Assembly (NCBI GenBank): GCA_963677765.1
Contig: OY782392.1
Span: forward strand, 450,001 to 482,000
Origin: Candidatus Saccharimonadota bacterium
Lineage (GTDB): Bacteria > Patescibacteriota > Gracilibacteria > BD1-5 > UBA6164
Length of the DNA stretch: 32,000 bases
Reading direction: 5' to 3'
The notes beneath the pieces are model-generated. The model worked only from the letters and a program-made list of their open reading frames with translations, ran no database searches and was not told the DNA's origin. A program made the translations under genes and the position numbers. Below, one piece after another: positions 3,287 to 31,224 of the stretch. Each line of letters opens with the position of its first letter. Positions within the stretch are counted from its first letter, which is position 1.

Positions 3287-6106
3287 ATGAGAAAAATAAT
3301 TTTCTTTATAATCTGATTTTACTACTCTATAAATAATACATTTGCTAGAGTATTAACAACTAGTTGACAAACCCCTACAACAAAGGAACAAGTAAAAGAA
3401 GAAACTTGATCAATGACAGATTGAACTTTTTTAGATGTTACTGATTGATGACTTTTTTATGATTTAGCATGATTTGCTCTATTAATTATTGCAACAATAA
3501 TAATTCTATTATTTATAAGGAAACTTTTATGACTTATATTTGAATTATACTATGCAAAAAATCTTAGATATCTAAAAGTAACTTTGCCTAGAGCCGATTC
3601 AAAAATGGATAAAGAAAAGGAAACAAAGAAGGATTTCAAGGAAAAAATTTGAATAATGAGTATGTTTTATAAAGCTATTCATAAATTAAGTGAAGCTTGA
3701 TTGCATGACACTCTTTTAAACATAATTTTCTGACATTCAAAAATTTCTTTGGAATTAGTATATGACAAATGACAAGTATACTTTTACATAGTTACATTTA
3801 AAAATTATGTAAATCTTATTAGTCAACATTTAACATCAAATTATAATGATGCTGAAATATTAGTAATAGACCCTAAAGATTGATATGTAGATCTAAAAGA
3901 AAAATGATACAAAATGAGAGCCGCATCTTTATGAAAAGAAAATGATGATGTATATCCAATAAAAGTATTCAAATACCTTGAAGATGATCCAATAAACAAC
4001 TTTACAAATGTTTTTTGAGGATTAGCAAAAGATGATAAAGCAGTTTTTCAATTAATTATAAAACCAGAATCATCTAGATACAACAAAAAAGCATTAAAAG
4101 CAGCAAGATTAGTAGCAAAATGAAAATATAAAAAATGAAAAAAATGATTATTTAGTTTTTTAAGTTTTCTACGGAATCCATTAGTTGCATTGATAGAATG
4201 ACCTGAAGATATGGTTTCAAATAATGCTCCTTGAGCATCAGAATGAGATGCATATAAAATATTTAACCAAGCAGAAACAGAGGCTCAAAAGACAATGTGA
4301 GAAACTGCAGCCCAACCTACTTTTAAGTCATCAATTAGAGTATTGGTATCAAGTAAAAACAAACAAAGTAGTGAAGACTGAGTTCATGCTATAGTAGCCG
4401 CAGCTTCAATGTTTACTGATGAATATAATAATGCATTAGATAATCCTCAAATTCTTGAAGATGCATTTCCTTGGTTTTTTACACCTGTTAGATACTTTGC
4501 ATTCAAAAATAAACTAGTTTGATTTTTACAAAATGTATCTTGGTTTTCGTCAGATGAAATATCTACTTTATATCACTTACCAGATATAAATTACAATAGA
4601 TCATCTATTATAAGCTGGTTAGATTATAAAAAACTTCCTACTCCTCATAATTTAAAAACTCCAAGTGATGCTACAATACTAAAAGAAAAAATTGAAGTTT
4701 GAGTGGACGAAAATGGAAAACCAAAATATGAAGAGATAGATAAACATAGACATTTATGATGATTTCCTGTCTATAAAGATTGAGTATTATTATGATGGAA
4801 TGAATATAGAAATAAAAAAACTCCTATATATTTCAATAGAAAAGATAGAGGTAGACATCATTATATAATATGAAAATCATGAGGTTGAAAATCTGTTTTT
4901 GTATGATATTTAGCAAGACAAGATGTCCGGAATGGTGATTGAGTTTGTGTAATTGATCCACATGGAGATTTAGTAGAAGATGTATTAGCATTTACACCTA
5001 AAGAAAGAGCAAAAGATGTAGTTGTTTTTGATCCTGCTGATTGAGATAGACCAATGTGATTAAATATGCTAGAAGTAATATCTACTGATCCTGATTTAAG
5101 AAAAAGAGAAATGGACAGAGCTGCGATGGATGCAACTGAAATTTTTATAAAAATATTTGGTGATGAGATATTTTGACCAAGAATACAACACTACTTTAGG
5201 AATGGTTGTTTGACATTAATGGAAGATGTCGAAGATGGATGAACTCTTATAGATGTACCAAGATTATTTGTAGACGATGCTTTTATGAAATATAAAGTAT
5301 CAAAAGTAAAAAATCCTGTAGTAAAATCTTTTTGGGATCATGAATATGCAAATACTTGAGAAAGAGAAAAACAAGAAATGATTCCTTACTTCTCTTCTAA
5401 ATTTTGACCATTTATTACTAACACAACTATAAGAAACATTATTTGACAACCTAAATCTGCTTTTAATATTAGACAGATAATGGACAATCAAAAAATACTA
5501 CTTGTTAACCTATCTAAAGGTAAAATTTGAGCACTTAATGCACAATTACTTGGTCTTATATTTGTATCAAAGGTAAATATGGCGGCTATGTCTAGAGCCG
5601 ATATTCCAGAATCTGAAAGAAAAGATTTTTACATGTATGTTGATGAGTTCCAAAACTTTGCAACAGAAACATTTTGAGAAATATTATCGGAAGCCAGAAA
5701 ATATCACTTAGCATTAATAATGGCTCACCAATTTATTGCACAAATTTGATGAAGTTGATCTCAAAAATGAGATAAACCAAGTATAAAAGATGCTGTATTT
5801 GGTAATGCCTGAACAATTATGAGCTTCAAAGTTGGTGCTGATGATGCAGAATATATGGAAAAAGAATATGCTCCTTTATTATCACAACAAGACATTATAA
5901 GTATTGCCAACTTTACAGCATATTGTAAATTAAATATTGATAATGCTACAACTAGACCTTTTGACTTAAAAACTATACGGGATAATAATTATAAAAATCA
6001 ACAAATAGCTGATATTATAAAAGAATATTCTAGAAAAAAATATGGTAGAAAAAAGAAATATGTTGATATGGAAATAGAGGCTAGATTATGAATTGATCCA
6101 AACTAA
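3287..6106 (+). CDS. VirD4/TraG/TraD-family (T4SS coupling-protein-like, FtsK/HerA-type) membrane-anchored P-loop ATPase (939 aa)
   Basis: ATG 3287 to TAA 6104-6106 is open under code 25; track ORF 5819..6091 is its in-frame tail. There are N-terminal hydrophobic segments (FALLIIATIIILLFI). Walker A is RHHYIIGKSGGGKS (4871-4894, with three of four Gly encoded by TGA). Walker B-like FYMYVDEFQNF is followed by ALIMAHQF. Confidence 0.75.
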
Positions 6107-6139
6107 AAGTAAACACTCCAAAAAAGTGTTTACTTTTTT
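6106..6139 (+). terminator. Rho-independent terminator
   Basis: Perfect 11-bp stem aaagtaaacac (6106-6116) / gtgtttacttt (6126-6136) followed by a T-run. Confidence 0.6.
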
Positions 6140-6195
6140 GTTAAATAGTAAAAAATATGTTAAAATATTATCAAATATTAAATAAATAATAATTT

Positions 6196-7335
6196 ATGAA
6201 AAAAATATTAATTTTATTGGCTATAATTTTTAGCTTTGTAAATATAGATATTGCTTTTTGAGAACAAAGTTGTTTTATAGATTGAAATTTTATACAACAT
6301 TGAAAAACAATAACTGCATATGAATCAAGTGTATCTTCAAATTGTCAAAGCACTTCAAGAACATGTAATGATTGAACTTTAAGCTGAAATAGCAATTATA
6401 ATAGTTTAAGTTGTCAAGAGTATAATAATAATGAATTACCAAATTCTAATAATTTAGATATTTGACAAACATCAAATAAAAACTCTACAACAAATGATTA
6501 TTTAAAAGAATTATGAAAAAGTTGAGATTGAGATATAAGAGTATGAAATGAATGAGAAAAATCAATAGTTAGATTCTTATATAACATAGCTAAGGATTTA
6601 AAAACAGTTATATATATAATATCTTGAGTTTATTTCATGATAATAACTATAAAATTAATACTATCTAGCAATACAGAAGAAGAGATATGAAATTTTAAAA
6701 AATGAATTATATGGATAACTATTGGTATCATACTAATGCAAATAGTATTCTTCTTTGTAGAAATATTATATGCAAAAGAAGTTTGAGCTGCATTAGCTGC
6801 AAACTTAGCAAAAAATATAATTGAACCAATAATAAAGATATTAGAAACAGCTGCTTCATTTTTCTTTTTATTAGTTGCTATATATGCATTTTATAGAATA
6901 GTAACTGCTAATTGAGAAGAAGATAAAGTAAAATCATGAAAAATGAGTATAATATATGCTATTATATGATTTATAGTAATAAAATTATCAAAAGATATAG
7001 TATATGCTGCTTATTGAAGAGTAAACTGTAATGAATCTAGTTTTTTATGAGTATTTCAAGTAAATTGAAATAATTGTGTTACAGAGAATCAAATATCAGG
7101 TATAAGTCAAATAATTGTTCAAATAATTAACTGGGCAAATAGTTTTATATGAATTATAATTATCTTGATGATTATATATGCTTGAGTTCAAGTTCTATTC
7201 TCATGAGGTGATGAAGAAAAACTTACAAAAGCTAAAAAATCAATAGTTTATATAGCTATCTGAGTAGCTATACTAGTACTAAATTATTTTATATTAACTT
7301 TCTTCTTAAGACCTGAAGTTTCAATAACTATATAA
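6196..7335 (+). CDS. Secreted/membrane protein with a 4-Cys N-terminal domain and three tandem VirB2/TrbC-pilin-like hairpin modules (379 aa)
   Basis: ATG 6196 to TAA 7333-7335 is open under code 25. Signal peptide MKKILILLAIIFSFVNIDIAFG. Cys-rich stretch SCFIDGNFIQHGKTITAYESSVSSNCQSTSRTCNDGTLSGNSNYNSLSC. Three repeats of TM / short charged loop / TM follow, e.g. YAFYRIVTANGEEDKVKSGKMSIIYAIIG and YAGVQVLFSGGDEEKLTKAKKSIVYIAIG. Confidence 0.65.
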
Positions 7336-7344
7336 TAAAAAAAC

Positions 7345-8265
7345 ATGAATAAAATAAAAAAAATAATAATCTGATTAATCATATGATTGTTTTGATTTTG
7401 TAATATAAGTTATGCAGCAAATATTCAATGATTAACTTGATGAGCAATAGATAGTACATCTAATGGTAATGTTTCTATTCAAATAACATGAACTGATTCT
7501 ACAAGTATATCAAAAACAGTAGAAAATGTATGATTGAATTTATTAACAAAAATAAAATATATATTTTCATGAGTATTATTAATATTTTTGGTATATGCTT
7601 GAGCACAAATGGTAATGTCAATGTGAACAGATGAGGATGCTCTATCAAAATCAAAAAGAACAATATGGTATTCTATGATTTGATTGGTATTTATAAATAT
7701 GCCTTGAACTTTATATGAAGCATTAAAATGAGACAAAACAAGTGTAGCATGATGAATATGAAGTTCTTGGGCAAATGAAATTAACTCTACAACTACTAAT
7801 CTATTTATAAATCTTGATATATTTGCAGTAACTCTAAACGATTATATAATTAAGTTTTTACAAATAATATTAGTTTCTGTTGCTATACTAGTTATAATAA
7901 TTGCTTGATTAAAAATAATTACATCTAGATGAAGAGAAGAACAAGTAACAGAATCAAAAAATAAAATTTTATGGTCAATTGTATGACTTATATTCATATG
8001 ATTTATTGAAGTATGGCAAAAATTTGCATATGGATGAGAAATTAGTGATTGACAAGATATATTTGAAACTATTGCTAACCTGCTTTTATTCTTGGCATGA
8101 CCAATAGTTATATTCTTCTTAACTATGGCAGGTTATTATTATATAACTGCTAATTGAGATGAAGATAAGGTAAAAAAATGAAAAAATATAGTAGTAAATG
8201 TACTATTAGCTACTGCAATACTACTTATATCATACATATTTTTAAATGATTTAATTACACTATAA
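7345..8265 (+). CDS. Membrane protein with three tandem VirB2/TrbC-pilin-like hairpin modules (306 aa)
   Basis: ATG 7345 to TAA 8263-8265 is open under code 25. Signal-like N-terminus MNKIKKIIIGLIIGLFGFCNISYA. The modules are VYAGAQMVMSMGTDEDALSKSKRTIWYSMIGLVF, IIIAGLKIITSRGREEQVTESKNKILWSIVGLIF and TMAGYYYITANGDEDKVKKGKNIVVNVLLATAIL. Confidence 0.65.
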
Positions 8266-8720
8266 TGAAAAAAAAGATATTAATAATAGCAATGCTATTA
8301 GCAGCTATATTTTGATTAAATATAAATAATACGTTTGCTAACTCATGAACAACAAATGAAAAAGTAACAATAGTAATAGTTAGTGAAAAAGTTCCATGAG
8401 CAAAATGTAAAGGTATCGATAAAGCATGAAATGAAACTAAGGATAACGAAAGTATAATATCTTGGAAATGTGAAGTATGACAATGAGCAAGTACAATTGT
8501 ATGAATGCTATGAGATATAATAAGATATTTTACATATCTGGCATGATTAGTATGAGTATTATTTATAGTATATAATGGTATATTATATAGTATGTGATGA
8601 GCTGATCAATCATTAAAAGAAGAATCTAAAAAAAGAATTATATGAACTCTTATATGATTAATTGTATTACTATTAAGTGGACCAATACTACAATTAGTTG
8701 CACCATGGATATATAAATAA
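8265..8720 (+). CDS. VirB2/TrbC-family pilin-like protein, single module (151 aa)
   Basis: The ATG at 8265 overlaps the upstream TAA (TAATG). Signal peptide MKKKILIIAMLLAAIFGLNINNTFA. C-terminal hairpin LAGLVGVLFIVYNGILYSMGGADQSLKEESKKRIIGTLIGLIVLLLSGP. TAA at 8718-8720. Confidence 0.65.
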
Positions 8721-8734
8721 TTCCTGAAAAAATA

Positions 8735-8770
8735 AAAAAGCACTGTTAAATTAATAACAATGCTTTTTTT
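8735..8770 (+). terminator. Rho-independent terminator (one mismatch in the stem)
   Basis: aaaaagcactgtt (8735-8747) / aacaatgcttttt (8756-8768), followed by a T-run. Confidence 0.45.
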
Positions 8771-8779
8771 AGTTTTAAT

Positions 8780-8854
8780 TGGTTGCGGAGACAGGAATTG
8801 AACCTGTGATCTTCGGGTTATGAGCCCGACGAGATACCACTTCTCCACTCCGCG
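8780..8854 (-). tRNA. Initiator tRNA-fMet (anticodon CAU)
   Basis: Reverse complement is CGCGGAGTGGAGAAGTGGTATCTCGTCGGGCTCATAACCCGAAGATCACAGGTTCAATTCCTGTCTCCGCAACCA. It has a C1-A72 mismatch, three G:C pairs closing the anticodon stem (GGG/CCC), a CAU anticodon, a T-loop GGTTCAATT, and an encoded CCA. Confidence 0.9.
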
Positions 8855-12880: not shown

Positions 12881-12910
12881 AAAAAGACTAGATTAAATCT
12901 AGTCTTTTTT
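12881..12910. terminator. Bidirectional terminator between convergent genes
   Basis: Perfect 13-bp stem aaaaagactagat (12881-12893), loop taa, then atctagtcttttt (12897-12909). Confidence 0.6.
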
Positions 12911-13334
12911 ATAAATCTGAAAAGTCAGCTGGTAACTCATCGATTGTATTGATATTAGTAGGATAAGTAGAAGTAGTTCAAAATATATTATTTCAAATAT
13001 CTTCTATTTTTTCAAAAATTCTTTTTGGTTCAGCATATTTTTCTACATCTAAACCTAACAATCTTCATAAGATAGGAAAAAGGAAAATAGTTAATATAGT
13101 AACTACAATACCAATAACAGCATATCTTATTGTATTAATAGCTGGTTTAATTTTATCATCCTTTCCTCATGAAAGTATTAGAAGAAGACCTCACCATAAT
13201 ATAAAAACAATAGAAAATATTCAAGCAACTAAAACAAATAATGAGATTATCAATAATACAAAATCTCAAAATTCCATATTAGATGAAAATAAAGATCATC
13301 CTGTTTCTATTGCATGTACAGTATCTACTATCAT
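12909..13334 (-). CDS. VirB2/TrbC-like pilin-type small membrane protein, single module (141 aa)
   Basis: Minus strand from ATG (comp. 13332-13334) to TAA (comp. 12909-12911). Sequence FVLLIISLFVLVAGIFSIVFILWGGLLLILSGGKDDKIKPAINTIRYAVIGIVVTILTIFLF shows the same TM-loop-TM pattern as the proteins at 6196-8720. Confidence 0.55.
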
Positions 13335-14379: not shown

Positions 14380-14697
14380 TTAAGCTTTTATTTCAATACC
14401 TACACCATTAGGAATAGATAAATCTTGTAACATATCCATAGTTTGAGAACTTGGTTCTAAGATATCAATTAATCTTTTATGTCTTCTTATTTCAAATTGT
14501 TCTCTAGCATCTTTATTAACAAAAGTTGATCTATTAACAGTAATTTTTTCAATTTTTGTTGGTAAAGGGATAGGTCCAACTACTTTAGCTCCAGAATCAG
14601 AAGCTATAGTAACTATTTTTTTAACAGCTTCGTCTAATATTTTGTGTTCAAATGCTTTTACGCTAATTCTAATTTTATTTGCAGCTTTTTTTGCCAT
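14380..14697 (-). CDS. rpsJ: 30S ribosomal protein S10 (105 aa)
   Basis: The track ORF is intact (no TGA): MAKKAANKIRISVKAFEHKILDEAVKKIV...GPIPLPTKIEKITVNRSTFVNKDAREQFEIRRHKRLIDI. Confidence 0.95.
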   Translation of the reverse strand: MAKKAANKIRISVKAFEHKILDEAVKKIVTIASDSGAKVVGPIPLPTKIEKITVNRSTFVNKDAREQFEIRRHKRLIDILEPSSQTMDMLQDLSIPNGVGIEIKA

Positions 14698-14796: not shown

Positions 14797-15987
14797 TTAT
14801 GCGCTAATTTTAGCAACAACTCCTGAACCAACAGTTCTACCACCTTCTCTGATTGCAAATCTTAATCATTCAGTCATCGCAATTGGAGATTGTAATTTAA
14901 CTGACATTTGGATGTTATCACCAGGCATAACCATTTCTACACCAGCTGGTAATTCAATATCACCAGTTACATCAGTAGTTCTGAAGTAGAATTGAGGTTT
15001 ATATCCTTTAAAGAATGGAGTATGTCTACCACCTTCGTCTTTAGTAAGAACATATACTTCAGCTTCGAAATCAGTATGAGGTTTAATTGTACCAGGTTTA
15101 GCTAATACTTGTCCTCTTTCTACATCATCTCTTTGAGTACCTCTTAATAAGATACCTGCATTATCTCAAGCTTGACCTTGATCTAATAATTTGTGGAACA
15201 TTTCTACTCATGTAACAGTAGTTTTTTGAGTATCTCTGATACCTACGATTTCAACTTCTTCACCTACTTTAATAATACCAGTTTCAATTTTACCAGTAAC
15301 TACAGTACCTCTACCTTTAATAGAGAATACATCTTCAATAGGCATTAAGAAATCTTTATCAGTTGGTCTATCAGGAACTGGTACGAATTCTTCAATAGCA
15401 TTAAATAATTCTACTATAGTTTTAGCACCATATTCTTTATCCATATCAGCTGGGTTTTCTAATGCTACTAAACCAGAACCTCTGATTATAGGAGTATCAT
15501 CACCTGGGAAATCATATTTAGATAATAAATCTCTAATTTCCATTTCAACTAATTCTAACATTTCTTCATCGTCAACCATATCACATTTATTCATGAATAC
15601 AACGATGTAAGGAACACCTACTTGTCTAGATAATAATATATGTTCTCTAGTTTGAGCCATAGGACCATCAGTAGCAGCAACGATTAATATAGCAGCATCC
15701 ATTTGTGCAGCACCAGTAATCATGTTTTTAACGTAGTCAGCATGCCCAGGACAATCAACGTGAGCGTAGTGTCTGTTAGCAGTTTCATATTCTACGTGAG
15801 ATGTATTAATAGTAATACCTCTTGCAGCTTCTTCAGGAGCGTTATCAATAGAAGCAAAATCTCTAATTTCAGCACCATTCATAGTACCTAATACAGTAGA
15901 TATAGCAGCAGTAGTAGTAGTTTTACCGTGATCAACGTGACCAATAGTACCTACATTCATATGTGGTTTAGATCTATCAAAAGCCAT
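14797..15987 (-). CDS. tuf: Elongation factor Tu (396 aa)
   Basis: The track ORF 15208..15987 holds the first 259 aa ([21 protein letters not shown]). Reading its terminal TGA (15208-15210) as Gly continues perfectly: [27 protein letters not shown]...[26 protein letters not shown], ending at TAA (comp. 14797-14799). Confidence 0.97.
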
Positions 15988-17938: not shown

Positions 17939-18511
17939 ATGCATAAAGCAATCTCTACCAACAAAGCAAGAAAAGAACTTGCAGGTATTTTTGGAATTAA
18001 GAACTGGAAAAAAGTAAGTAAAAAAGCTGTTGAAAAATATTTCAACCCTACTGAATTTTTCGGAGAAACACAATATTGGGAAAAGAAAAATAATTTTGTA
18101 TTATTAATTGAAAAATCTTTAAAAAATTTCAAATTAAAACTTACAAAAAATGAAGCAATAGAAACATTAAAAGAACTAGGCTTAACATCAAACGTAGATT
18201 TAAATCTATACTTTGATAAATCTGGTGAAAATTTTTTCACAAAAAAATATGATTTTGATAATCTATTTGAATTAAGAACTTTTGTCAAAGAAAGAATTAA
18301 GTCAAAAGTAAAAAAATACTATGGAAAAAGTTTTGAAGAAATAATTCCACAAGAACAAAAAAGATTAGAAATATACAAAAAAGCTTGGGAATTAAGAAAA
18401 TTAAATGGATCTAAGCTTGCAAACAATACTGTTGTTGAGTTTCTTATAAAAGAAATTGGTCACTGGAGTCCTAAAAATAAAGGACATAATTTATGCAAAA
18501 GAGCCTCATAA
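17939..18511 (+). CDS. Lys-rich basic 190-aa protein of unknown function, with no TGA codon (possible HTH-like segments)
   Basis: The ORF reads identically under codes 11 and 25. All 9 Gly codons are GGN and all 4 Trp codons are TGG. It has its own promoter, SD and terminator. Segments ARKELAGIFGIKNWKKV and SKLANNTVVEFLIKEIG look HTH-like by eye only. Confidence 0.65.
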   Translation: MHKAISTNKARKELAGIFGIKNWKKVSKKAVEKYFNPTEFFGETQYWEKKNNFVLLIEKSLKNFKLKLTKNEAIETLKELGLTSNVDLNLYFDKSGENFFTKKYDFDNLFELRTFVKERIKSKVKKYYGKSFEEIIPQEQKRLEIYKKAWELRKLNGSKLANNTVVEFLIKEIGHWSPKNKGHNLCKRAS

Positions 18512-18530
18512 AAAGAGGTTCTTTATTTTT
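18499..18530 (+). terminator. Rho-independent terminator overlapping the stop codon
   Basis: aagagcctc (18499-18507) / gaggttctt (18515-18523), 9 bp with one G-U pair, followed by tattttt. Confidence 0.55.
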
Positions 18531-18564: not shown

Positions 18565-18593
18565 TTGATTTAAATTTTTAAATATGTTAAAAT
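18565..18593 (+). promoter_or_regulatory. Candidate promoter for the 910-aa gene
   Basis: TTGATT (18565-18570), a 17-nt spacer, then TGtTAAAAT (-10 at 18588-18593), 34 nt upstream of the ATG at 18627. Confidence 0.45.
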
Positions 18594-18626: not shown

Positions 18627-21359
18627 ATGAGAAATAATCCTGAATTTAATAGTTTTCAAGAAGCAAGAGAAAAAGATTTAAGTTTAAGAGAGATAAAAGA
18701 ATCAATAAAAAAACTTTCTATAGAACAAAGACAACAATTGTCGCATGAGATAAATAGACAAATAATATCAGAACTTCATAAATGAATGGAGGTTAAAAGA
18801 TGAGATGAATTAAATTTTTTGAAAGCTTTAACTCTAGAATGAAATAGAATAACATGGACAAGTCAAAGAGAAGCTGATACAATTCATCCATGAGACATAA
18901 TAAAAATAGAATGAGATAATATATTGAAAAATTGAAATTCTATATGAAAAGTTGAATGATTCAAAATAGAAGAAAATCCTCAAAGTCAAGAAAACACAAC
19001 AATAGAAGCAAATAATCAATCTAATAACAATCAAGAAACAGAAAGTCAATCTCAATCAAGCCAAGAAACAAATTCATCAGAAAATTTAACAGTACAACAA
19101 CAAGAACAAACTGTAAATCAAGAAAATTGAACTAACCCAACTATAACTGAAACAATAACTCAATGAGCAACTGATGTAAGAGATGATTTTCAAGAAATTT
19201 TTGATAATCTAACTTGAGCTAATCTTTCTGAAGAAGAAAGACTAGATGTAAGAGCATATTCTCAAGATTGAAAATATTATATAATCTGAGAGAACTGAGA
19301 ACCTGTATTATATAGTTCATTATGATTAAATGAAAACTTTAGAGAATCTATAGAAACCATATGAGAATCAAATAAAAAAATATGAAATTTTGAGCTTATA
19401 ATTTCTGCTCTTGTAAACTCAGAAGAAGATAAATACAAAAATATAAAAGAAGAATTTAATAATAAAATACAAGACTTAGACATATCATCTATGGATTCTA
19501 TTAACAGTCTATTATTATGGATAGATGAAAAAAATAATGAAATAACTGATTGAGAACCAGTAAACTTAAACGATAAACTAGAAGTTATAAGCTTTATAAG
19601 AGACTTAGATAGTAATTGAGCAAATAATTTACTAGTTAATGAATTATTTAATTTAACAAATATAAGTGAAGAAGATTTATATGCTTTTATAGACAACCCA
19701 TCTAATAATGCTGAAAATATTAGAACTTTATTATGAGAAGAAAAATATAGAGAAGTAAGAGAAAAAATAAGAGAGAAAAAAACTCAAGCAGATAATCATT
19801 TTGATGACAATAAAGACTTATTTATAAAACAGCTTATAGAAAAAAATTGAATGGATATTAATCAAGCCACTGAATTAGTTGAACAACAATATAAACAGTC
19901 TATAATAGATAGTTTTGTATGAAGTTACGCTAGAAATGAAATATTGCTTTCTTATGTTGAATGATTATCAGAAACATGAAACTGGCATTGATATAAATGA
20001 GAAAACAAATTAATGGAAATGTTTTCAGATATACAATGAATAGGTTATTTAGATGCTAGAGATAGTACTTTGGCTTCAATTGCATTTTGGTCAAAAGAAG
20101 GTTTTTATATATTAGGGACTCAAATAATAGCAATCGCAGCTTGAGCTGTAACTATGTGAGCTGGTTATGTATGAGTTAATGCTGCTGTTTGGTGAACAAG
20201 ATGATATAGATGAATAAGAGCATTACAAACGGCTAGTAACTTTGCAAATTCTTGAACTAAAATGGCAAGATTAGCACAAGTATGAAGATGGTGAGCTATG
20301 AGTACTGTATGATGAGCTAGCTTTTATACTTGATATGCTTGAGTTCAATCTATAGCAGAATGAGAAAATATGTATTCATGGGAAGGTTTATGAGAGTCTA
20401 TATTGTACACATGAGCATTTAGAGCTTTATCATCTATACCATGATTAAGAATAGACCCTAGCAAACCACTAAGTCAACAAAAATTAAAACTAGCAATTGC
20501 TACACCTTTGGATGCAATAGCATTCTCTTCTATATGATTAACTTTGGAATGAGTAATATTAGAACCAGGTGAATGGAATGCAGAACTAATAATGCAAGCA
20601 ATAGTTATGGCTGCAATATTTAGAACATGATGAGCTACTCTACAAAGAATGAAATTTAAAACAAATTGAAACAATGTAGAAATACTAGAATGAGCATCTA
20701 GCACTCCAATAAGATTCTTCAGACATAGTCAAACATGAAAAACATATACTAGAACTCTAGACTGAAAATTCCGTAATGAAAATTGAAGAGTAGTAAGTAA
20801 TTTAAAAGTAGATAATTTAGTTGAAGTTCAAGTAAATGAACAAGTAAGAAGATCAACTATGGATAGAATAAGAACAAGTTCTAGAGAATCTATTTCAAAT
20901 GCTTGAGAAAGAATTAGATGATCTCTATGAAAAATAAATGAAAGTGAATTGATATCATGAGCAGTTCAATGATTAAATCATAGAAGAAAAGTTTTATTTG
21001 AAAAAGCATTAAATTGATTAAAAAATAAATGAATAAATACTGTTACATGAACCAAAAATTTCTTGGCAAATTTAACATATAGAGGTTTTTGAGAATGATG
21101 ACCTGCTTTTAGAAATTGGGTTTTTTATACATGATGAACTATATATAGTTCATGGGAAGAATTAAACACACTATTTGACGCTTTAAATAATAAAGATGAC
21201 ACAATATGGAAATTAGAGCATATTGATGAAGTATGAGAAATAATACTTAACTTAACTTTATTTAAAAGTCTATGATTAATCCGTGCATCAGCTTATACAT
21301 GGGCAATAGAAAAACTTTTCTGAGATGCAGAAACTTTAGAACAAGAAACTACTGAATAA
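18627..21359 (+). CDS. Orphan large protein (910 aa): charged/coiled-coil N-terminal half, Q/N/S/E-rich low-complexity tract, Gly-rich multi-TM core, basic C-terminal region
   Basis: ATG 18627 to TAA 21357-21359 is open under code 25 with dozens of in-frame TGA and no TAA/TAG (I checked it codon by codon). The low-complexity tract lies at about 18969-19126. The hydrophobic Gly-rich core is FYILGTQIIAIAAGAVTMGAGYVGVNAAVWG...GRWGAMSTVGGASFYTGYAGV...ELIMQAIVMAAIF. Four track ORFs on the minus strand here are antisense artefacts. Confidence 0.7.
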
Positions 21360-21374
21360 ATCAGTAGTTTTTTT
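21346..21374 (+). terminator. Rho-independent terminator
   Basis: aaactactga (21346-21355), loop ataaa, tcagtagttt (21361-21370), then a T-run. Confidence 0.6.
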
Positions 21375-21432
21375 GTGTTAATGATTAAATTATGATAAAA
21401 TAATTATAAATTATATATATAATAAAAACAAA

Positions 21433-24162
21433 ATGCAACTAAGTAATAGACCTAGTAATAACCCTAATTCAAATACAGAAGAAATAAAATTATGAAACTT
21501 GGAGCAAAATACTTTTACTCAAGAAGAAATAGAAGAATACAAAGAAGTATTATTAAATAGAGAACAAGCTGAGAGAGTTAGACAATGAAGAATAACAATA
21601 GAAGAAATATCTAGACTAGCAAGAGAGCAACTTAAATTAAATATGGAATCTGAAAGATCTGTTGAACAAAGTCAATTAAGATGAAGAGAAATAAATAGAG
21701 AATGAAACGAAAGCCAAGAAATTGATAGAGAAGATGCTGATAATACATTATCTAGCCTTAATGAAACCGTTCAAAATGCATGAGAACAAGTAAGAGAAAA
21801 AGCTAGTGAAATAAAAGAAAATATAGCAAAAGTAGAATGAGCTTCTGGTATTTTAAACTGGTTAGAACAAGCTAAAGAGAAATGATGAATAATGTGATTT
21901 ATAGCAAGTATAATTCTTTGAATAGCTGGGGTTTTTTGATACAAAAAAGAAGTAAATGAACAAATTCAATCTGTAAGAGAAACTGTAGAGAATGGCTTAA
22001 ATCAAGAACAAATAAGCCAAACAAAACAAACTACAAAAGATACTATAAATCAATCTCTATGAGAATATATAACAAATGAAAATAGAGAAAGATTAAATAG
22101 CGCTATAGATTGATTATCAGAAGAACAAATAAGAAGATTATATCACTCTATAGAGTCATGAGAATTTTGAATAGATGATATAGAAGATATAGCTCCAAGT
22201 ATATTTTTAGAAGTATTAAACGAAGCCCAATTAGAACAAATAAAACAAAATATAGAAACAACTATTATAGAAAATCTATCTAAAACAATAAAAGAGGAAT
22301 ACTGAATTGATGTAGAGTTAAATCCAGAGAAAAAAACTGAATTAATAAACTTAGTAAGAGAGAATCTAAGATTAAGTGATGATAGAATAATGGAAATAAA
22401 AGAAATAGTAAAAAAAGAAGAGTTCAGATACAAAGATTTATCTGAAATATGAGGTGAAACAATTATAAATGGTTTAAGCATAATGTTATGACTTATATCT
22501 AGATGAATAGTTCCTCTTTCTAACTTTACTTTTAGTTTTGTAGAAGCTGGTTGAAAAATAATAGCTATTTGAGCTTGAGCATTATGAATAAACGAAAATA
22601 TAACATTTGAAAATTTTCATAATCAACTTGAAAAAATGAGTGATTCAGAAAGAGCAATGTTTGTATGAATACTTTACAGAAAATGATGATTATTCCTATG
22701 ATTGGTATCAAGTATGATGGAGCATGCTAGTAAATTTACAATATCATCAATTACTAATACTACAGTATCATGAATAGAACTAGCTTGAACATCTTTAACT
22801 AACAACTTTTCTGCACAAGCAGAAAATATTGATAAAATAGCAAGAACAATTAATCCTTCCAATTTGACTGACCATAAATGAGTTTTAAATGAAGCAATAA
22901 GAAACTTAGATAAAGTTAGAGAAAATTATAAAATGATGGATCTAATACAACAAGTGGATTGAAACTTAGATGATGCATCTAAATTATCACAACTAAAATG
23001 ACTTTTATCTACAAATAATATAGATATTCCTAACTGAACTAATAGTTTCGATGATTTAATAAGAGCTCTTTGAGAAAAAAACAATATAGTTACATCTCTA
23101 AATAATAGATGATCTATATCATCTAGCCTAGGTTTTTGAGCAAGTGCCGACTTAAATAGATTAAATAGACAACTAGAAAGAATATCTAGTTCTCAAAAAA
23201 GAATGTTTAATCCAAACTTTTTATTGAATTGATTTTCTAGAATGAGAGAAGCTATAAATATAGCAGAAGTTTCTAGAATGTGAGACAGATTAGCTTTTCA
23301 TTTTGATAGTCCAAGTCAAGCAAGAGATTGATTAAGAAGATTAAATACACTAGCTAATAGATTTCCAGAATTATTAAAATGAGCAATAGATAAAGCTCCA
23401 ATAATAATGGTTGCATGATTGGCTGCAAACGATGATAAACCATTTTTTGAATCTCTAAAAGATCAATTACCTACACTTATACCTATTGTATGACCTATAT
23501 TGATACTTAGTGACTCATGATGGTCATGGTCAGATTGATTTCCTAAGCCTATTGATCCATTAAATGTATGAATATGAGCTGCCTTATTAACTATAGATTG
23601 AGCAATATTATGAAAAGAGATTTACACTTGATGAGCTAGAGCATGAGTATGATATATATTAAAGCCTTTTAGAGATATATACTCTATGTGAAGATGAACT
23701 TTAGATATGTGATATTCTGTTTCTAGAACTATAGCAAGATGAAATCCTTCTGCTATGTGAAATATAATAAAAGAATGAGCTAGAAGAGTAAAAAATATAC
23801 CTGGTTGATCTAGAGTAAGAGCATTAGCATTAATTTGAGCTGTTTGATATGTTTGAGTAAACTATTTATTAGAAGGTTGAGAACAAATAGAATGAATAGA
23901 AGAATTAATGGTAAATTGAAAAGTAGATAGAGAAAGAGTAAGTCAAGTTGCTTGAGAACTTAGCGATTGACAAAAAGAAGAAGCATTAAAAGCTATAATT
24001 CAAGAAGAATGATTAGAATGATTAGAAATAAAAGTAATAGCAAATAGAATTTCTATAGTATCAAATAACCCTAGTATAAAAGCTGATTGGTTTATTGATA
24101 GTGAATTATTTGAATTATTTAAACTAGATTCAGACTATAGATTTGTTTATGAACAAGCATAA
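21433..24162 (+). CDS. Orphan large protein (909 aa): coiled-coil/charged regions interspersed with Gly-rich TM segments; probable distant paralogue of the 910-aa neighbour
   Basis: ATG 21433 to TAA 24160-24162 is open under code 25 (checked codon by codon). TM-like segments are GGIMGFIASIILGIAGVFGY, GGKIIAIGAGALGI, APIIMVAGLAAN, LPTLIPIVGPILILS and RALALIGAVGYVGVNYLL. It shares the hexapeptide GYVGVN (23845-23862) with the upstream protein (20163-20180). Confidence 0.7.
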
Positions 24163-24188
24163 AACACCCTTTACAAAAGGGTGTTTTT
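24161..24188 (+). terminator. Rho-independent terminator
   Basis: Perfect 12-bp stem aaaacacccttt / aaagggtgtttt with a 3-nt loop and a T-run. Confidence 0.6.
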
Positions 24189-24266
24189 ATTGACTAAAAA
24201 ATTAAAAACATATAATAAAACAACCAAATTAATATTGAATATATTTGTATTAATAAATTAAAAAAT

Positions 24267-28062: not shown

Positions 28063-31000
28063 TTAAATTTTTGCTTTTAATTTTATTTTTCTTTTTCAAG
28101 AACTTCAATTAAAAATCAACAGTAAGTATTCTACAAATTTTTCATCATGTGCAAAGTTTTTTATAGAACTTCTTAATCTAGTAGGACTTACAACTACAAA
28201 ATTTGTATCTCTATCCATATCTAAAAATTTCCTAAGATCTGCAACCTCAATATCTAAATCAAAATCTATTTGATAGTTTATACCTATTTTCTTTATAGAA
28301 CTAATTTTATATTGACTAGATAATATTTTAAGTCTTAATAAGTTAAATAAATTTAAAGTCTCTTTTGCTAGAGTATTATTTAATTCTTCAAAATCTGATA
28401 TAAGATTATTCAAATCTTCAAGAGTTCTAATACTTTCGATTTCTCTATAAAAGTTTATTTTATCTAATTCTCAAGAAAAGTATTCATCAGATATATAGGA
28501 TTCAATATTTAAATCAATAGTTGTATTTATTTTTTTTGTTTTTATTTCATCTTCTCAGATATAGATATTTTGTTCGTTTTTTAATTGCTCAATTTTGTCT
28601 TCTAGCATTTCCAAAAATAGACTAACTCAAACTTCAACAGAACTTCAAGACTGTCTTATTCATAAAATATCTCATCATCACCTTATTTCTAAATCTTTGA
28701 CAGCTAATTCAAATCAAGCTCAAAGATGACTATAATCAACTATTGTTTTTAGTCTTTTTGCAGCATCTTCCTTTATTTTGTCTTTTCTAAATAATAAATA
28801 ACAATATCAATTATTTGCTCATCTACCTACTCTTCATCTAAGCTGATGAATTTGGCTAATTCAAAAATTCATAGCATCATTTATAAAAATAGTATTTACA
28901 TCTCTAAAATCTATTCAGTTTTCAATAACTGTTGTAGCTAATAGTATGTCATATTTTTTTTGTTTGAAGTCAATTATTCTTCTTTCTAAAAGATCACCTC
29001 ATAATTGTCAATGAGCTATAACAACTTTTTTTCAAGGTAGTAGTTTTTCTAAATAAGAAGCAAATCAAGATATTGTTTCAACTCTATTGTGTATAAAAAA
29101 TACTTGTCATCATCTAGAGAACTCTCTTTTACATGCCTCTATTATTAACTTATCATCTAGAGAAGAAACTATTGTTTGAACTGGTTGTTTTCAAACTGGA
29201 GCAGTTGTCAACATAGACACTTGTTTTAATCAATTCAAAGCCATATTTAAACTTCTTGGTATAGGTGTAGCAGACATAGATAATATATCAATATTACCCT
29301 TAAATCATTTTATTTTTTCTTTATCTTTTACTCAAAACTTATGTTCTTCATCTATAACAAGTAATCATAAATCCTTGAATTCAACATCTTGACTAAGCAA
29401 CCTATGTGTACCAATTATCAAATCTATTTTTCACTCCGCTAATTTTTTTAGAGTTGATTTTATAACAGAAGGCTTTTCAAATCTAGTAACAACTTCTATA
29501 TTAAAAGGGAAATCATTAAACCTTTCACGAGCTTTTTCAAAATGCTCATAAGCCAATACAACCAATGGTGAAATTAAAGCAGCTTGTTTTCAGTTTATAA
29601 GTGACTTATATATGGCTGCAAAAGCTACTTCTGTTTTTCAAAATCATACATCTCAACTAAGAAGCCTATCCATAGGGTTTTCTGACTCCATATCTTTGTA
29701 TATTTCATTTATAACATTATACTGATCTGGTGTATAAGTGTACTCAAAACTATTAAAAAATTCAGCTTCAAGTTCTGGTTTTGATTTGAAGCTATGTCAT
29801 ATTTCAAGCTTTCTTTTTGCAAATATATCTAAAAGTTCTCATGCTATTTGTTCGACATCTTCTGACACTTTTTTCAATTTTTTAGCCCAATCTTTTGTAG
29901 ACAATCATGTCAATTTTGGATTTTCTACTCATACATATTTTGATAGCCTATATACCTCAGTTATAGGAACAAAGAGCTTGTCATCATTTTTATACTCTAT
30001 TGTCAAATATTCTTTTTTTATCAAAGCTCAATTTTTTCAAGAAGGAAATTCTTTTGTTATAATTTCCTTAAAAACTCATATTCAATGATCTATATGTACA
30101 ACATAATCTCATGATTTTATTTGCATTAACAAATCCATATTTTCACTAATACTTCTTTTTACTCTTTTTTTGATAAAGATTCTAGAAATATTGTCATCAC
30201 ATATAACAAATATACTTTTAGATTTAAAACTTTTTAAATTATTTAGATTAGACTCAAAAACAATTACATCATCTAAGTTATTTAAATCTAAAAAGTTATT
30301 AATAGTTTTTTTATTTTTTGTAAATATAAATTTTTTTATATTTTTGTCTTCTAATTTCAACTTTAAATCATCTAGATTTTGAATAAGCAAATCACTATAT
30401 CATAAATCTATTGAGTTTTCATGATTTCACAATGATGAAAAAACTATATAATTATCTAATCATGAATATATATCATCAAAAGAAGCATAAAAATCTATAT
30501 TGTCAATAAGAGTAAAAATATTATTTGAAGATTTATATTTATCCAGAAAATAATTATTAGAGTTTCTAGTAAATTCTAAATCGTGTAAAGATTTATTAAA
30601 TCAAAAAACAAAATAGTCAAGATTCTTATCTCAATATATTATTTGATCTATTTCATTATCCCAAAAACTTATTTTTAATAATTGTCAAGTTTTGTCTGTA
30701 TAAGTTAAAGTATCTCACATTATAAAAAATGTATATGGATTTTGACTGTCTGAAAATTTTATATTTAGTTCATTTAACTTTTTACTAAGTTCATTTATTT
30801 CTATTTGTTGTCACTTAGAAATCTTAAAAATATTATTATATTCAAAATTAGATATATTCTCTGTTTCTAGATTAAAAATTTCTTGAGTAGCTATATAATT
30901 AGATATATTGTTATAAAAAACATTAACAAAATCTATAAGATTATCTAGATCATAAAGCTTTAGTCATAAAAAAGATGATATCTTTATATAATTGTTAACT

Positions 31001-31137
31001 TGTTTAGAGTTTTCTACTACAACTAAAAAACTCTTATCAATAGACAAATAATCTTTTGATAAAAGTAACTTATTAAAGTTGTTTGAAAGTCATGTGTAAA
31101 TATTATTTTTTTCTAGATTTTTTAAAATATCAATCAC
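28063..31137 (-). CDS. mfd: Transcription-repair coupling factor (about 1024 aa; start codon uncertain, GTG at comp. 31135-31137 or TTG at comp. 31159-31161)
   Basis: Minus strand under code 25: GDYVVHIDHGIGVF, PMDRLLSGDVGFGKTEVA (29632-29655), LLVIDEEHKFGV, LSMSATPIPRSL, FFIHNRVETI, QLRGRVGRG, GGGDILGIRQSG. Track ORFs 28105..28413 and 30109..30390 are in-frame fragments. There is no in-frame ATG near the 5' end. Confidence 0.9.
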
Positions 31138-31224
31138 TATATTTCATCTTATATTATACAAATTGTTGATAAATTATATAAAAAAATTAAAATAAGAAAA
31201 ATTATTATTTTAGTTAATTTAAAA

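Follow-up and report, generated by a model that had tools for sequence, protein, structure and literature searches.

The 32,000-nucleotide stretch of contig OY782392.1 analyzed here, referred to below as the window, carries two consecutive genes, A and B, which encode proteins of about 910 amino acids when UGA is read as glycine. Our sequence comparisons indicate that A and B constitute an undescribed membrane-protein pair that belongs to the core of its lineage, has no characterized relative, and occupies a fixed chromosomal site as a hypervariable, mosaic, recombining cassette. An initial annotation, made from the DNA alone, had considered the pair the best candidate for an undescribed system, and we likewise regard it as the window's most interesting uncharacterized feature. 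We tentatively propose, with a probability of roughly 0.4, that A and B form an envelope complex at the interface with a host, a prey cell, or a phage, and that this complex is under diversifying selection.

The position of the pair is invariant. In every locus recovered (L001, L002/3, L004, L005/6, L007, L018, and L019-21), an FtsX-like gene on the minus strand is followed by the gene in the A slot, B, and queA. This ftsX-queA slot is kept from conspecific genomes to distant relatives in which B is just 34% identical, and since it is fixed in all loci, the pair is a core chromosomal feature rather than an island. In closer relatives, the shared order continues past queA with the genes for a GGDEF protein, PPIase, FKBP, Mfd, and TsaB, and the opposite side of the pair has the genes for EF-Tu, S10, L28, and S16. 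The ftsX gene adjoins A divergently; because it lies on the opposite strand and A and B have their own promoters, the pair is not co-transcribed with it.

Within this fixed frame, the sequences of A and B differ greatly between close relatives. When the window was compared with L007 and L005, amino acid identities were 0.94 and 0.93, respectively, for QueA and 0.96 and 0.96 for PPIase, versus 0.83 and 0.35 for A and 0.62 and 0.53 for B. For A and B, these values do not exceed those for genomes with just 74 to 86% identity in their housekeeping genes. The contrast is strongest between L005 and L007 themselves. Their nucleotide identity is 97.5% in queA and 99.2% in the PPIase gene (synonymous divergence [dS], 0.04 to 0.11) and 97.1% over 6.8 kb of the right flank, values by which the two can be taken as effectively conspecific, whereas their cassettes are unalignable or 66 to 71% identical. 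In general, conspecific genomes with a right flank of about 97% identity carry A and B alleles that are just 12 to 77% identical. The high identity between L005 and L007 ends about 116 codons into A and returns at the 3' end of B in L007; in L005, the return to about 97% identity lies just past a strain-specific open reading frame (ORF) of 97 amino acids downstream of B. These comparisons show that, in the genus of the window, the region from about codon 117 of A to the stop codon of B behaves as a hypervariable cassette.

The alleles are mosaics, and allele comparison further shows that some of their modules are common to several species. Residues 1 to 200 of B from L007 match L009 at 85 to 100%, and its residues 270 to 690 match B of the more distant L002 and L004 at 88 to 98%; dS to L002/L004 in this central part is 0.43, versus 0.7 to 1.2 in the flanks. 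B from L009 resembles that of the window from about residue 240 onward (83 to 95%) and has an unrelated N terminus. A from L005 joins an N-terminal domain of the window type (98%) to an essentially unrelated middle and a C-terminal module of the L002 type, and L010 combines the A allele of L007 with the B allele of L009. Three conserved anchors, namely the N-terminal domain of A, the A-B intergenic island, and the terminator of B, can account for this cassette-like reassortment.

Within module classes, the ratio of nonsynonymous to synonymous divergence (dN/dS) is 0.02 to 0.25, indicating strongly purifying selection, and only the linker of A approaches or exceeds 1. The ratio is 0.02 to 0.17 over most of the length of A and 0.01 to 0.25 over residues 240 to 909 of B. 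Because these values are low within classes, A and B are functional proteins that fall into old, divergent allele classes and not decaying filler. The initial annotation had suggested that a lack of conservation in close relatives would point to fast-evolving filler; the extreme divergence between close relatives is indeed found, but the low ratios within allele classes (0.02 to 0.2) speak against filler.

Protein A proved to be a modular partner with a conserved N-terminal domain, a replaceable middle that carries membrane hairpins, and alternative C-terminal modules (Table 1). The N-terminal domain is 98% identical between the window and L005, versus 12 to 32% for the remainder of A. Its identity to the distant L019 is 48%, and its dN/dS is 0.06 to 0.11. 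This domain had no match in PDB or Pfam; a ThiS/beta-grasp signal (E of about 1e-3) lay under the Pfam cutoff and was not accepted. The linker differs in length and sequence in every homolog (identity, 17 to 47%; dN/dS, up to 1.2), with a poly-Q run in L007, and includes the Q/N/S/E-rich tract pointed out in the initial annotation. In place of the acidic region, for which a low-confidence model predicts helices, the L005 and L019 alleles carry unrelated sequence. The glycine-rich core contains a long hydrophobic stretch (residues 492 to 523) and a hairpin-like pair of segments (residues 622 to 645 and 654 to 672), has basic flanks at residues 511 to 570 and 661 to 720, and is 74 to 88% identical even to distant alleles. 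The type I C-terminal module is replaced by an unrelated type II module in L002, L004, L005, and L019.

Relatives of A are few, with just 6 among 5.8 billion clusters. Scans of genome collections and metagenomes with the glycine-free N terminus of A found the known loci alone, and a match in L014, labeled "Pseudomonadota," was spurious (50% guanine-plus-cytosine [GC] content, standard code, out of frame). Sequence matches nevertheless indicate that the A slot is old despite the small number of A homologs. The 994-residue occupant in L019 has the N-terminal domain (E = 9e-38) and a type II C-terminal module (E = 1e-12) with a different middle. The 1,166-residue occupant in L018 matches the second hairpin and the predicted beta-rich segment of A (E = 4.4e-9, filters off), the latter being the core of the match.

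The initial annotation had regarded both proteins as orphans, which does not hold for B. An exhaustive HMMER search of 1.84 billion representatives with a B profile of W-coded rows returned 78 clusters (at 50% identity) with E <= 1e-3, 30 of them with E <= 1e-30. The family, defined here from matches to B and named LYRKGG (about 900 residues), includes about 50 full-length, colinear members of 830 to 1,090 residues, with matches spanning profile positions of about 10 to 910. It is a sizeable protein family without a Pfam model or a solved relative. Some members are translated with glycine (G-rich, with about 1% W or less) and some come from high-GC genomes. One such member, P0041 (852 residues), is encoded in the standard code on a contig of 68% GC (L016; Logan DRR438482), so the B family reaches well beyond low-GC recoded genomes. 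Within L016:141-5551, an Ala-rich helical protein of 926 residues is encoded 3', not 5', of P0041; it has no Pfam match and no similarity to A, and a fragment in L017 is likewise unrelated to A.

In a glycine-corrected alignment of 38 full-length members, seven or eight hydrophobic segments of B are conserved (residues 152 to 170, 344 to 367, 408 to 437, 647 to 665, 679 to 697, 709 to 727, and 795 to 813). Near-invariant residues, all present in the B protein of the window and each conserved at 84 to 100%, lie in or beside these segments: Y415-R416-x-x-G419 (89, 94, and 84%), P645 (97%), G662 (94%), G687-P688 (100 and 92%), D722 (97%), and P745. Y415, R416, and G419 are invariant in an alignment of B with 12 glycine-translated members (13 sequences). 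The buried Arg and Asp residues and the Pro/Gly kinks suggest that the membrane core of B has an active role and is more than an anchor. The most conserved core includes the motifs QKRMFNPNFL, SRMGDRLAFHF, PELLKGAIDKAPIIMVAG, and LIPIVGP and is 75 to 95% identical between allele classes. The segment at residues 152 to 170 has a family mean Kyte-Doolittle (KD) hydropathy of 1.2 to 1.8, and the loops before the last hydrophobic segment are strongly basic and the one after it is acidic. In L007, L009, and L010, the N-terminal module is replaced by an unrelated type 2 module (MSIETINQ...); identity is 12 to 21% between the two types, versus 85 to 100% within type 2.

Distant paralogy of A and B had been proposed on the basis of a matching architecture and a shared hexapeptide, GYVGVN. 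The best BLASTP alignment of the two proteins had an E value of 0.058 and was off-register, and profile alignment with hhalign gave a probability of 5.5%, or 0.4% against a deeper B profile. No A-family protein was among the 78 matches of the B profile, and a hidden Markov model of A did not match B homologs even with filters off. The hexapeptide is present in both proteins (residue 513 in A, 20163-20180; residue 805 in B), but a shared 6-mer arises with a probability of about 0.08 in shuffles of the same composition, and the corresponding columns are just about 50% conserved in the B family, so it is not beyond chance as a sign of paralogy. The matching architecture holds loosely: both proteins have helical regions and hydrophobic clusters, but A has one cluster (residues 485 to 675) and B has four (residues 152 to 170, 344 to 437, 647 to 727, and 795 to 813). 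The absence of similarity beyond composition, which the initial annotation had itself named as counting against paralogy, is what these alignments show: A and B are unrelated to each other and are not paralogs.

Each gene was described initially as having its own promoter-like element and terminator. A plain promoter consensus scan does not rise above shuffles (53 found versus 46 +/- 6.5), and the assignment is correct because the sigma70-like or extended -10 elements are conserved in the cross-locus comparison, in up to 8 loci. In 8 loci, among them the distant L018 and L019, the gene in the A slot is preceded by the pattern TTGAxx, a spacer of about 17 nt, and TGnTAnAAT. The sequence between A and B forms a conserved island comprising the terminator of A, a run of 7 or 8 T residues, and the extended -10 element of B (TGTTATAAT in L019); in this region, nothing else can be aligned between the divergent alleles of L005 and L007. 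The 5' arm of the A terminator is formed by the last codons of A, ACT ACT GAA (T-T-E), and the C terminus "...TTE" is therefore invariant across unrelated C-terminal modules. In L019, the stem has a different sequence and the hairpin and T-run are still formed. The stem sequence of the B terminator follows the B allele type across loci. Directly 3' of this terminator, ahead of queA, lies a promoter-like TTGACT ... TATAAT pair with a 15-nt spacer (24190-24216, plus strand), which most of the related loci share.

Table 1. Positions of genes A and B, their protein modules, and their expression signals in the window
Feature	Position	Strand	Description
Promoter of A	18565-18593	+	-35-like TTGATT, spacer of 17 nt, extended -10 TGTTAAAAT; consensus scan
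Gene A	18627-21359	+	910 aa (amino acids) under code 25; modular membrane-anchored protein, lineage restricted
A N-terminal domain	18627-18971	+	aa 1-115; best-conserved part, left recombination anchor
A linker	18972-19196	+	aa 116-190; variable, low-complexity Q/N/S/E/T; covers tract 18969-19126
A acidic helical region	19197-20078	+	aa 191-484; net negative charge
A Gly-rich hydrophobic core	20079-20651	+	aa 485-675; from hydropathy of window and family
A beta-rich segment (predicted), PIRFFRHSQTGKTYTRTLDGKF..	20694-20831	+	aa 690-735; conserved in family alignment
A C-terminal module, type I	20859-21356	+	aa 745-910
Terminator of A	21346-21376	+	Hairpin AAACTACTGAA/TTCAGTAGTTT (21346-21370), then T-run; in all alleles
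Promoter of B	21393-21401	+	Extended -10 TGATAAAAT, 31 nt before ATG; kept in 8 loci
Gene B	21433-24162	+	909 aa under code 25; polytopic membrane protein, large undescribed family
B N-terminal charged helical module, type 1	21433-21837	+	aa 1-135
B strongest transmembrane segment (predicted)	21886-21942	+	aa 152-170, GIMGFIASIILGIAGVFGY; KD 2.0 in window
B hydrophobic cluster 2	22462-22743	+	aa 344-437
B near-invariant motif L-Y-R-K-G-G	22672-22689	+	aa 414-419
B most conserved core	23110-23622	+	aa 560-730; hydrophobic aa 647-665, 679-697, and 709-727 with D722
B last hydrophobic segment	23815-23871	+	aa 795-813; holds GYVGVN (23845-23862)
B acidic C-terminal domain	23875-24159	+	aa 815-909; predicted alpha-beta-beta-alpha-beta, low confidence (pLDDT [predicted local distance difference test] of about 50)
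Terminator of B	24161-24187	+	AAAACACCCTTT-ACA-AAAGGGTGTTTT, then T-run; right edge of variable cassette

The gene models rest on a reassigned codon. The window has a GC content of 25%, and long ORFs appear solely when TGA is taken as sense. All three TGA codons of its EF-Tu gene align with Gly of Escherichia coli EF-Tu (3/3), so UGA encodes Gly, and the code is 25 rather than 4. The window derives from a genome of the Gracilibacteria type (BD1-5, Candidate Phyla Radiation [CPR]) that decodes UGA as Gly. The two ORFs reported initially were recovered under code 25, and, as had been stated, most of their Gly residues are encoded by TGA (69/76 in A and 69 or 70 of 78 or 79 in B, about 90%) and the standard code leaves just short antisense ORFs (19277-19783 and 22143-22616). 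TGA-rich Gly coding is not peculiar to A and B, since TGA usage is genome-wide. In most genes of the window, TGA makes up 60 to 100% of Gly codons; its share is 8% (3/38) in the EF-Tu gene (14797-15987, minus strand) and 0% in the gene for ribosomal protein S10 (14380-14697, minus strand), and highly expressed genes thus seem to avoid the reassigned codon.

Public collections hold the proteins of this clade in code 4, with Trp for each TGA and a Trp content of 5 to 10% (P0001 to P0012 and most of P0015 to P0090). The product of gene A itself is present there as P0001 and appears as 92% identical. Because the database copies carry Trp for Gly, word-based homology searches are weakened, and code-4 translation probably contributed to the poor structure models obtained here. 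Such translations, with Trp at UGA, degrade homology search and structure prediction across the clade.

Family-library searches covered A, B, their family members, and their subdomains. In agreement with the initial annotation, no recognizable enzymatic or structural domain was found with Pfam, NCBIfam, PADLOC, PHROGs, or PDB sequence profiles. PADLOC gave no significant match for 6 A-family and 7 B-family members, and no toxin, trafficking, or immunity family matched A or B. Several candidate roles put forward at the outset were not borne out. For the VirB6/TrbL-like or type IV secretion system (T4SS) role, searches for a TrbL or VirB6 Pfam family were negative up to E = 10 for A and B and up to E = 0.1 for 13 members of the B family, and the pair never lies beside T4SS genes. 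For a glycine-zipper pore former, no hydrophobic segment of either protein contains GxxxGxxxG, the sole occurrence being in the soluble N-terminal domain of A (residue 103), and GxxxG counts were 5 in A and 4 in B versus 6.3 and 6.7 expected. For an SMC-like protein, there was no Pfam, NCBIfam, or PDB profile match, and coiled-coil matches were at noise level (E > 0.01). No match was found on phages by tblastn of B or on plasmids by tblastn of P0041, and the N-terminal domain of A was not found in IMG/VR. Foldseek searches with models of the database versions, in which W replaces G (pLDDT, 37 to 38), gave no match at E <= 1e-3; both models were largely helical. The C-terminal region of B (about 65 residues) as predicted gave sub-threshold Foldseek matches to ring-building motif (RBM) domains (SpoIIIAH, PrgH, YscD, and CdsD; E, 1.6 to 9), and a 35-sequence profile of this domain found nothing in PDB or Pfam.

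Several neighboring features were also noted. The T4SS-like genes of the window lie at 3287-8265 and 12909-13334, 10 to 15 kb upstream of the pair and separated from it by tRNA, EF-Tu, S10, and ftsX genes. Their cluster (3287-6106, 6196-7335, 7345-8265, and 12909-13334) encodes a 939-residue membrane-anchored ATPase that matches T4SS-DNA_transf, DUF87, and TrwB and three proteins with one to three T4SS_pilin domains (PF18895), and it is interrupted by genes for a CHASE2-type adenylate/guanylate cyclase, a FecR-like protein, and tRNAs. A 190-codon ORF (17939-18511, plus strand) lies between ftsX and A; it has no TGA, 9 GGN Gly codons, 4 TGG codons, no Pfam match, and a terminator-like hairpin at its 3' end (18498-18524). 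None of the related loci has this ORF, and the distance from ftsX to A is 868 nt here versus 155 to 182 nt elsewhere; the ORF resembles an insertion specific to this strain, located at the border of the variable cassette. The 97-residue ORF between B and queA in L005 (7492-7785; also in L006) is found in this strain only and has a signal peptide-like N terminus and a sub-threshold DUF3316 signal (E of about 1e-3). The gene for Mfd (TRCF; 28063-31173, minus strand) is open for 1,036 codons, and its first ATG gives 885 residues; since relatives encode 1,014 to 1,045 residues, translation probably starts farther upstream, at a codon other than ATG. A 197-residue code-25 ORF (8255-8848, minus strand) that overlaps tRNA-Met (8780-8854) has an atypical composition and 1 TGA and is probably not a gene.

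How episymbionts and predators among the CPR/Patescibacteria recognize their hosts, attach to them, and draw resources from them is a central open question. To our knowledge, there are almost no candidates for host contact machinery in the CPR beyond pili and generic giant surface proteins. The A/B locus provides a concrete candidate, because allelic replacement and sharing of modules across species are what is expected of a specificity determinant. The combination of a core pair, a conserved membrane core in B, swappable modules, replacement within species, and sharing across species would be explained most simply by an envelope complex that faces a changing partner. A and B would be subunits or coworkers of a complex of the cytoplasmic membrane that is indispensable to the lineage. 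In B, the conserved part within the membrane, with its buried Arg and Asp residues and Pro/Gly kinks, may perform a constant task, for example as a conduit or in a step coupled to energy or ions, and the swappable soluble modules of both proteins may set specificity toward the external partner. This partner could be the surface of a host or prey cell needed by episymbiotic or predatory bacteria, or it could be phages for which the complex serves as the receptor. Under negative frequency-dependent selection, allele classes that are very old and divergent would then persist and recombine in the form of cassettes. Gracilibacteria and Absconditabacteria have been inferred or shown to depend on hosts or to be predators and to possess envelope proteins that are elaborate and evolve fast (PMC8080830, PMC6851277, PMC11452946); the B family is not described in the papers on Vampirococcus or groundwater Gracilibacteria. 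One can imagine a more specific version, which we consider a long shot, in which the pair would be the membrane-embedded core of a previously unknown conduit through which Gracilibacteria and related CPR bacteria make contact with, or feed on, other cells. The core of B would provide the channel or energy coupling, its modeled C-terminal domain would form a ring outside the membrane as in SpoIIIAH-SpoIIQ, the modules would set host or prey specificity, and the allele classes would correspond to host range.

A number of points weigh against an envelope complex at such an interface. Neither protein has a signal peptide or an adhesin-like or receptor-binding domain. On a simple reading of topology, the most variable modules (the linker and C-terminal module of A and the N terminus of B) would be cytoplasmic, and the topology obtained from hydropathy and the positive-inside rule is itself not self-consistent, as the number of segments conflicts with the charge pattern. 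The structure models, built from the W-for-G database versions with 6-row alignments, reached pLDDT values of just 38.4 and 37.5. The allele comparisons rest on about 8 independent loci, and because dN/dS exceeds 1 solely in the linker, the diversity reflects old allele classes and recombination and not demonstrable ongoing positive selection.

An alternative that we regard as unlikely, though it fares best among the competing explanations, is that A and B are housekeeping membrane scaffolds, i.e., lineage-specific proteins for morphogenesis, division, or membrane organization, built of coiled coils and membrane hairpins, whose divergence follows from weak constraint on coiled coils. The universally syntenic core position among translation and division genes, divergent from an FtsX-like gene, would fit this role, as would the purifying selection, the largely helical predictions, and the fact that much of the variable sequence is predicted to be cytoplasmic. 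Relaxed constraint, however, yields neither unrelated alternative modules nor cross-species sharing of modules such as that seen in the center of B from L007, and it does not produce 12 to 35% identity between conspecific genomes whose flanks are 97 to 99% identical. The absence of co-transcription with ftsX also counts against it.

We consider it improbable that the pair is a membrane-associated antiphage or superinfection exclusion module whose allele turnover mirrors the dynamics of defense islands. A two-gene cassette swapped within species between conserved flanks, strain-specific small ORFs nearby (the 190-residue ORF in the window and the 97-residue ORF in L005), and membrane association are all features that such a module might display. 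Defense systems are patchy in distribution, whereas this pair is at the same site in every relative and the B family is ancient. No family member tested had a PADLOC match, no nuclease, NTPase, or other effector domain was found, and searches of phages, plasmids, and IMG/VR contigs revealed no relatives.

Slightly less probable again is a polymorphic effector, in which A would be delivered or inserted by means of a constant trafficking N-terminal domain, a variable payload, and hydrophobic hairpins resembling those of membrane effectors of the Inc type or delivered by a T4SS, and B would act as its cognate membrane partner, chaperone, or immunity-like protein. The organization of A, with a conserved N-terminal domain, a replaceable remainder, and alternative C-terminal modules, recalls the logic of polymorphic toxins; its hydrophobic segments are bilobed or hairpin-like; and T4SS-like ATPase and pilin-like genes lie 10 to 15 kb upstream. 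Against this, there is no known toxin or trafficking domain, and the acidic "...TTE" C terminus is explained by the overlapping terminator stem and not by a secretion signal. B matches A in size, its membrane core is deeply conserved, and its distribution is far too wide for an immunity protein; in the few loci available, the classes of the A C-terminal module and the B N-terminal module are not linked. The initial proposal of distant paralogs that form either a T4SS channel resembling VirB6/TrbL or a pore of the glycine-zipper type drew on the Gly-rich hydrophobic segments and GYVGVN in both proteins and on the T4SS-like genes of the window, but it is very improbable given that paralogy is rejected, that GYVGVN is compatible with chance and not conserved in the B family, and that there is no T4SS family match, no GxxxGxxxG in the membrane segments, and no locus in which the pair adjoins T4SS genes.

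Compared with known systems, the pair combines familiar features in an unfamiliar way. Like VirB6/TrbL, B is a polytopic membrane protein in a genome with T4SS-like genes, but A and B share no sequence similarity with these proteins, differ from them in size and architecture, and lie outside the T4SS-like cluster in all loci. The modeled alpha-beta-beta-alpha-beta fold of the C-terminal 65 or so residues of B (pLDDT of about 50) is a possible lead toward the RBM domains of SpoIIIAH-SpoIIQ, of EscJ, and of PrgH-type proteins of the type III secretion system, as its order of secondary-structure elements fits and as this domain, acidic and located C-terminal to the last hydrophobic segment, is possibly extracytoplasmic. 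The domain has no profile match in PDB or Pfam, its Foldseek matches have E values of 1.6 to 9, and no other components of such systems are encoded nearby. A resembles polymorphic toxins and contact-dependent inhibition systems in having a constant N-terminal domain (98% identity), two exchanged types of C-terminal module, and a gene directly downstream. It differs from them in that no toxin, trafficking, or immunity domain was found, the downstream gene encodes the 909-residue polytopic protein B, A itself carries membrane hairpins, and the locus is core and not accessory.

The closest parallels are hypervariable, recombining loci for envelope or surface proteins at fixed sites of the chromosome, such as genes with PTD repeats and those for polymorphic membrane and surface proteins in host-associated bacteria. 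A hypervariable PTD-repeat gene has been described in a closed Gracilibacteria genome of 1.34 Mb and 28.9% GC (Sieber et al. 2019, PMC6851277); identity with that gene is ruled out, as it belongs to another genome and is another kind of gene. A and B share with these loci extreme local diversity between near-identical genomes, confinement of the diversity to a single locus between conserved flanks, association with the membrane, and occurrence in a host-dependent lineage. Those loci vary in repeat number or by point changes, whereas A and B vary by replacement of whole modules in two nonrepetitive proteins of about 900 residues, which have no signal peptide or adhesin domains and of which B has a core common to distant lineages. 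The A/B cassette is thus a variation on the known theme of diversifying envelope loci.

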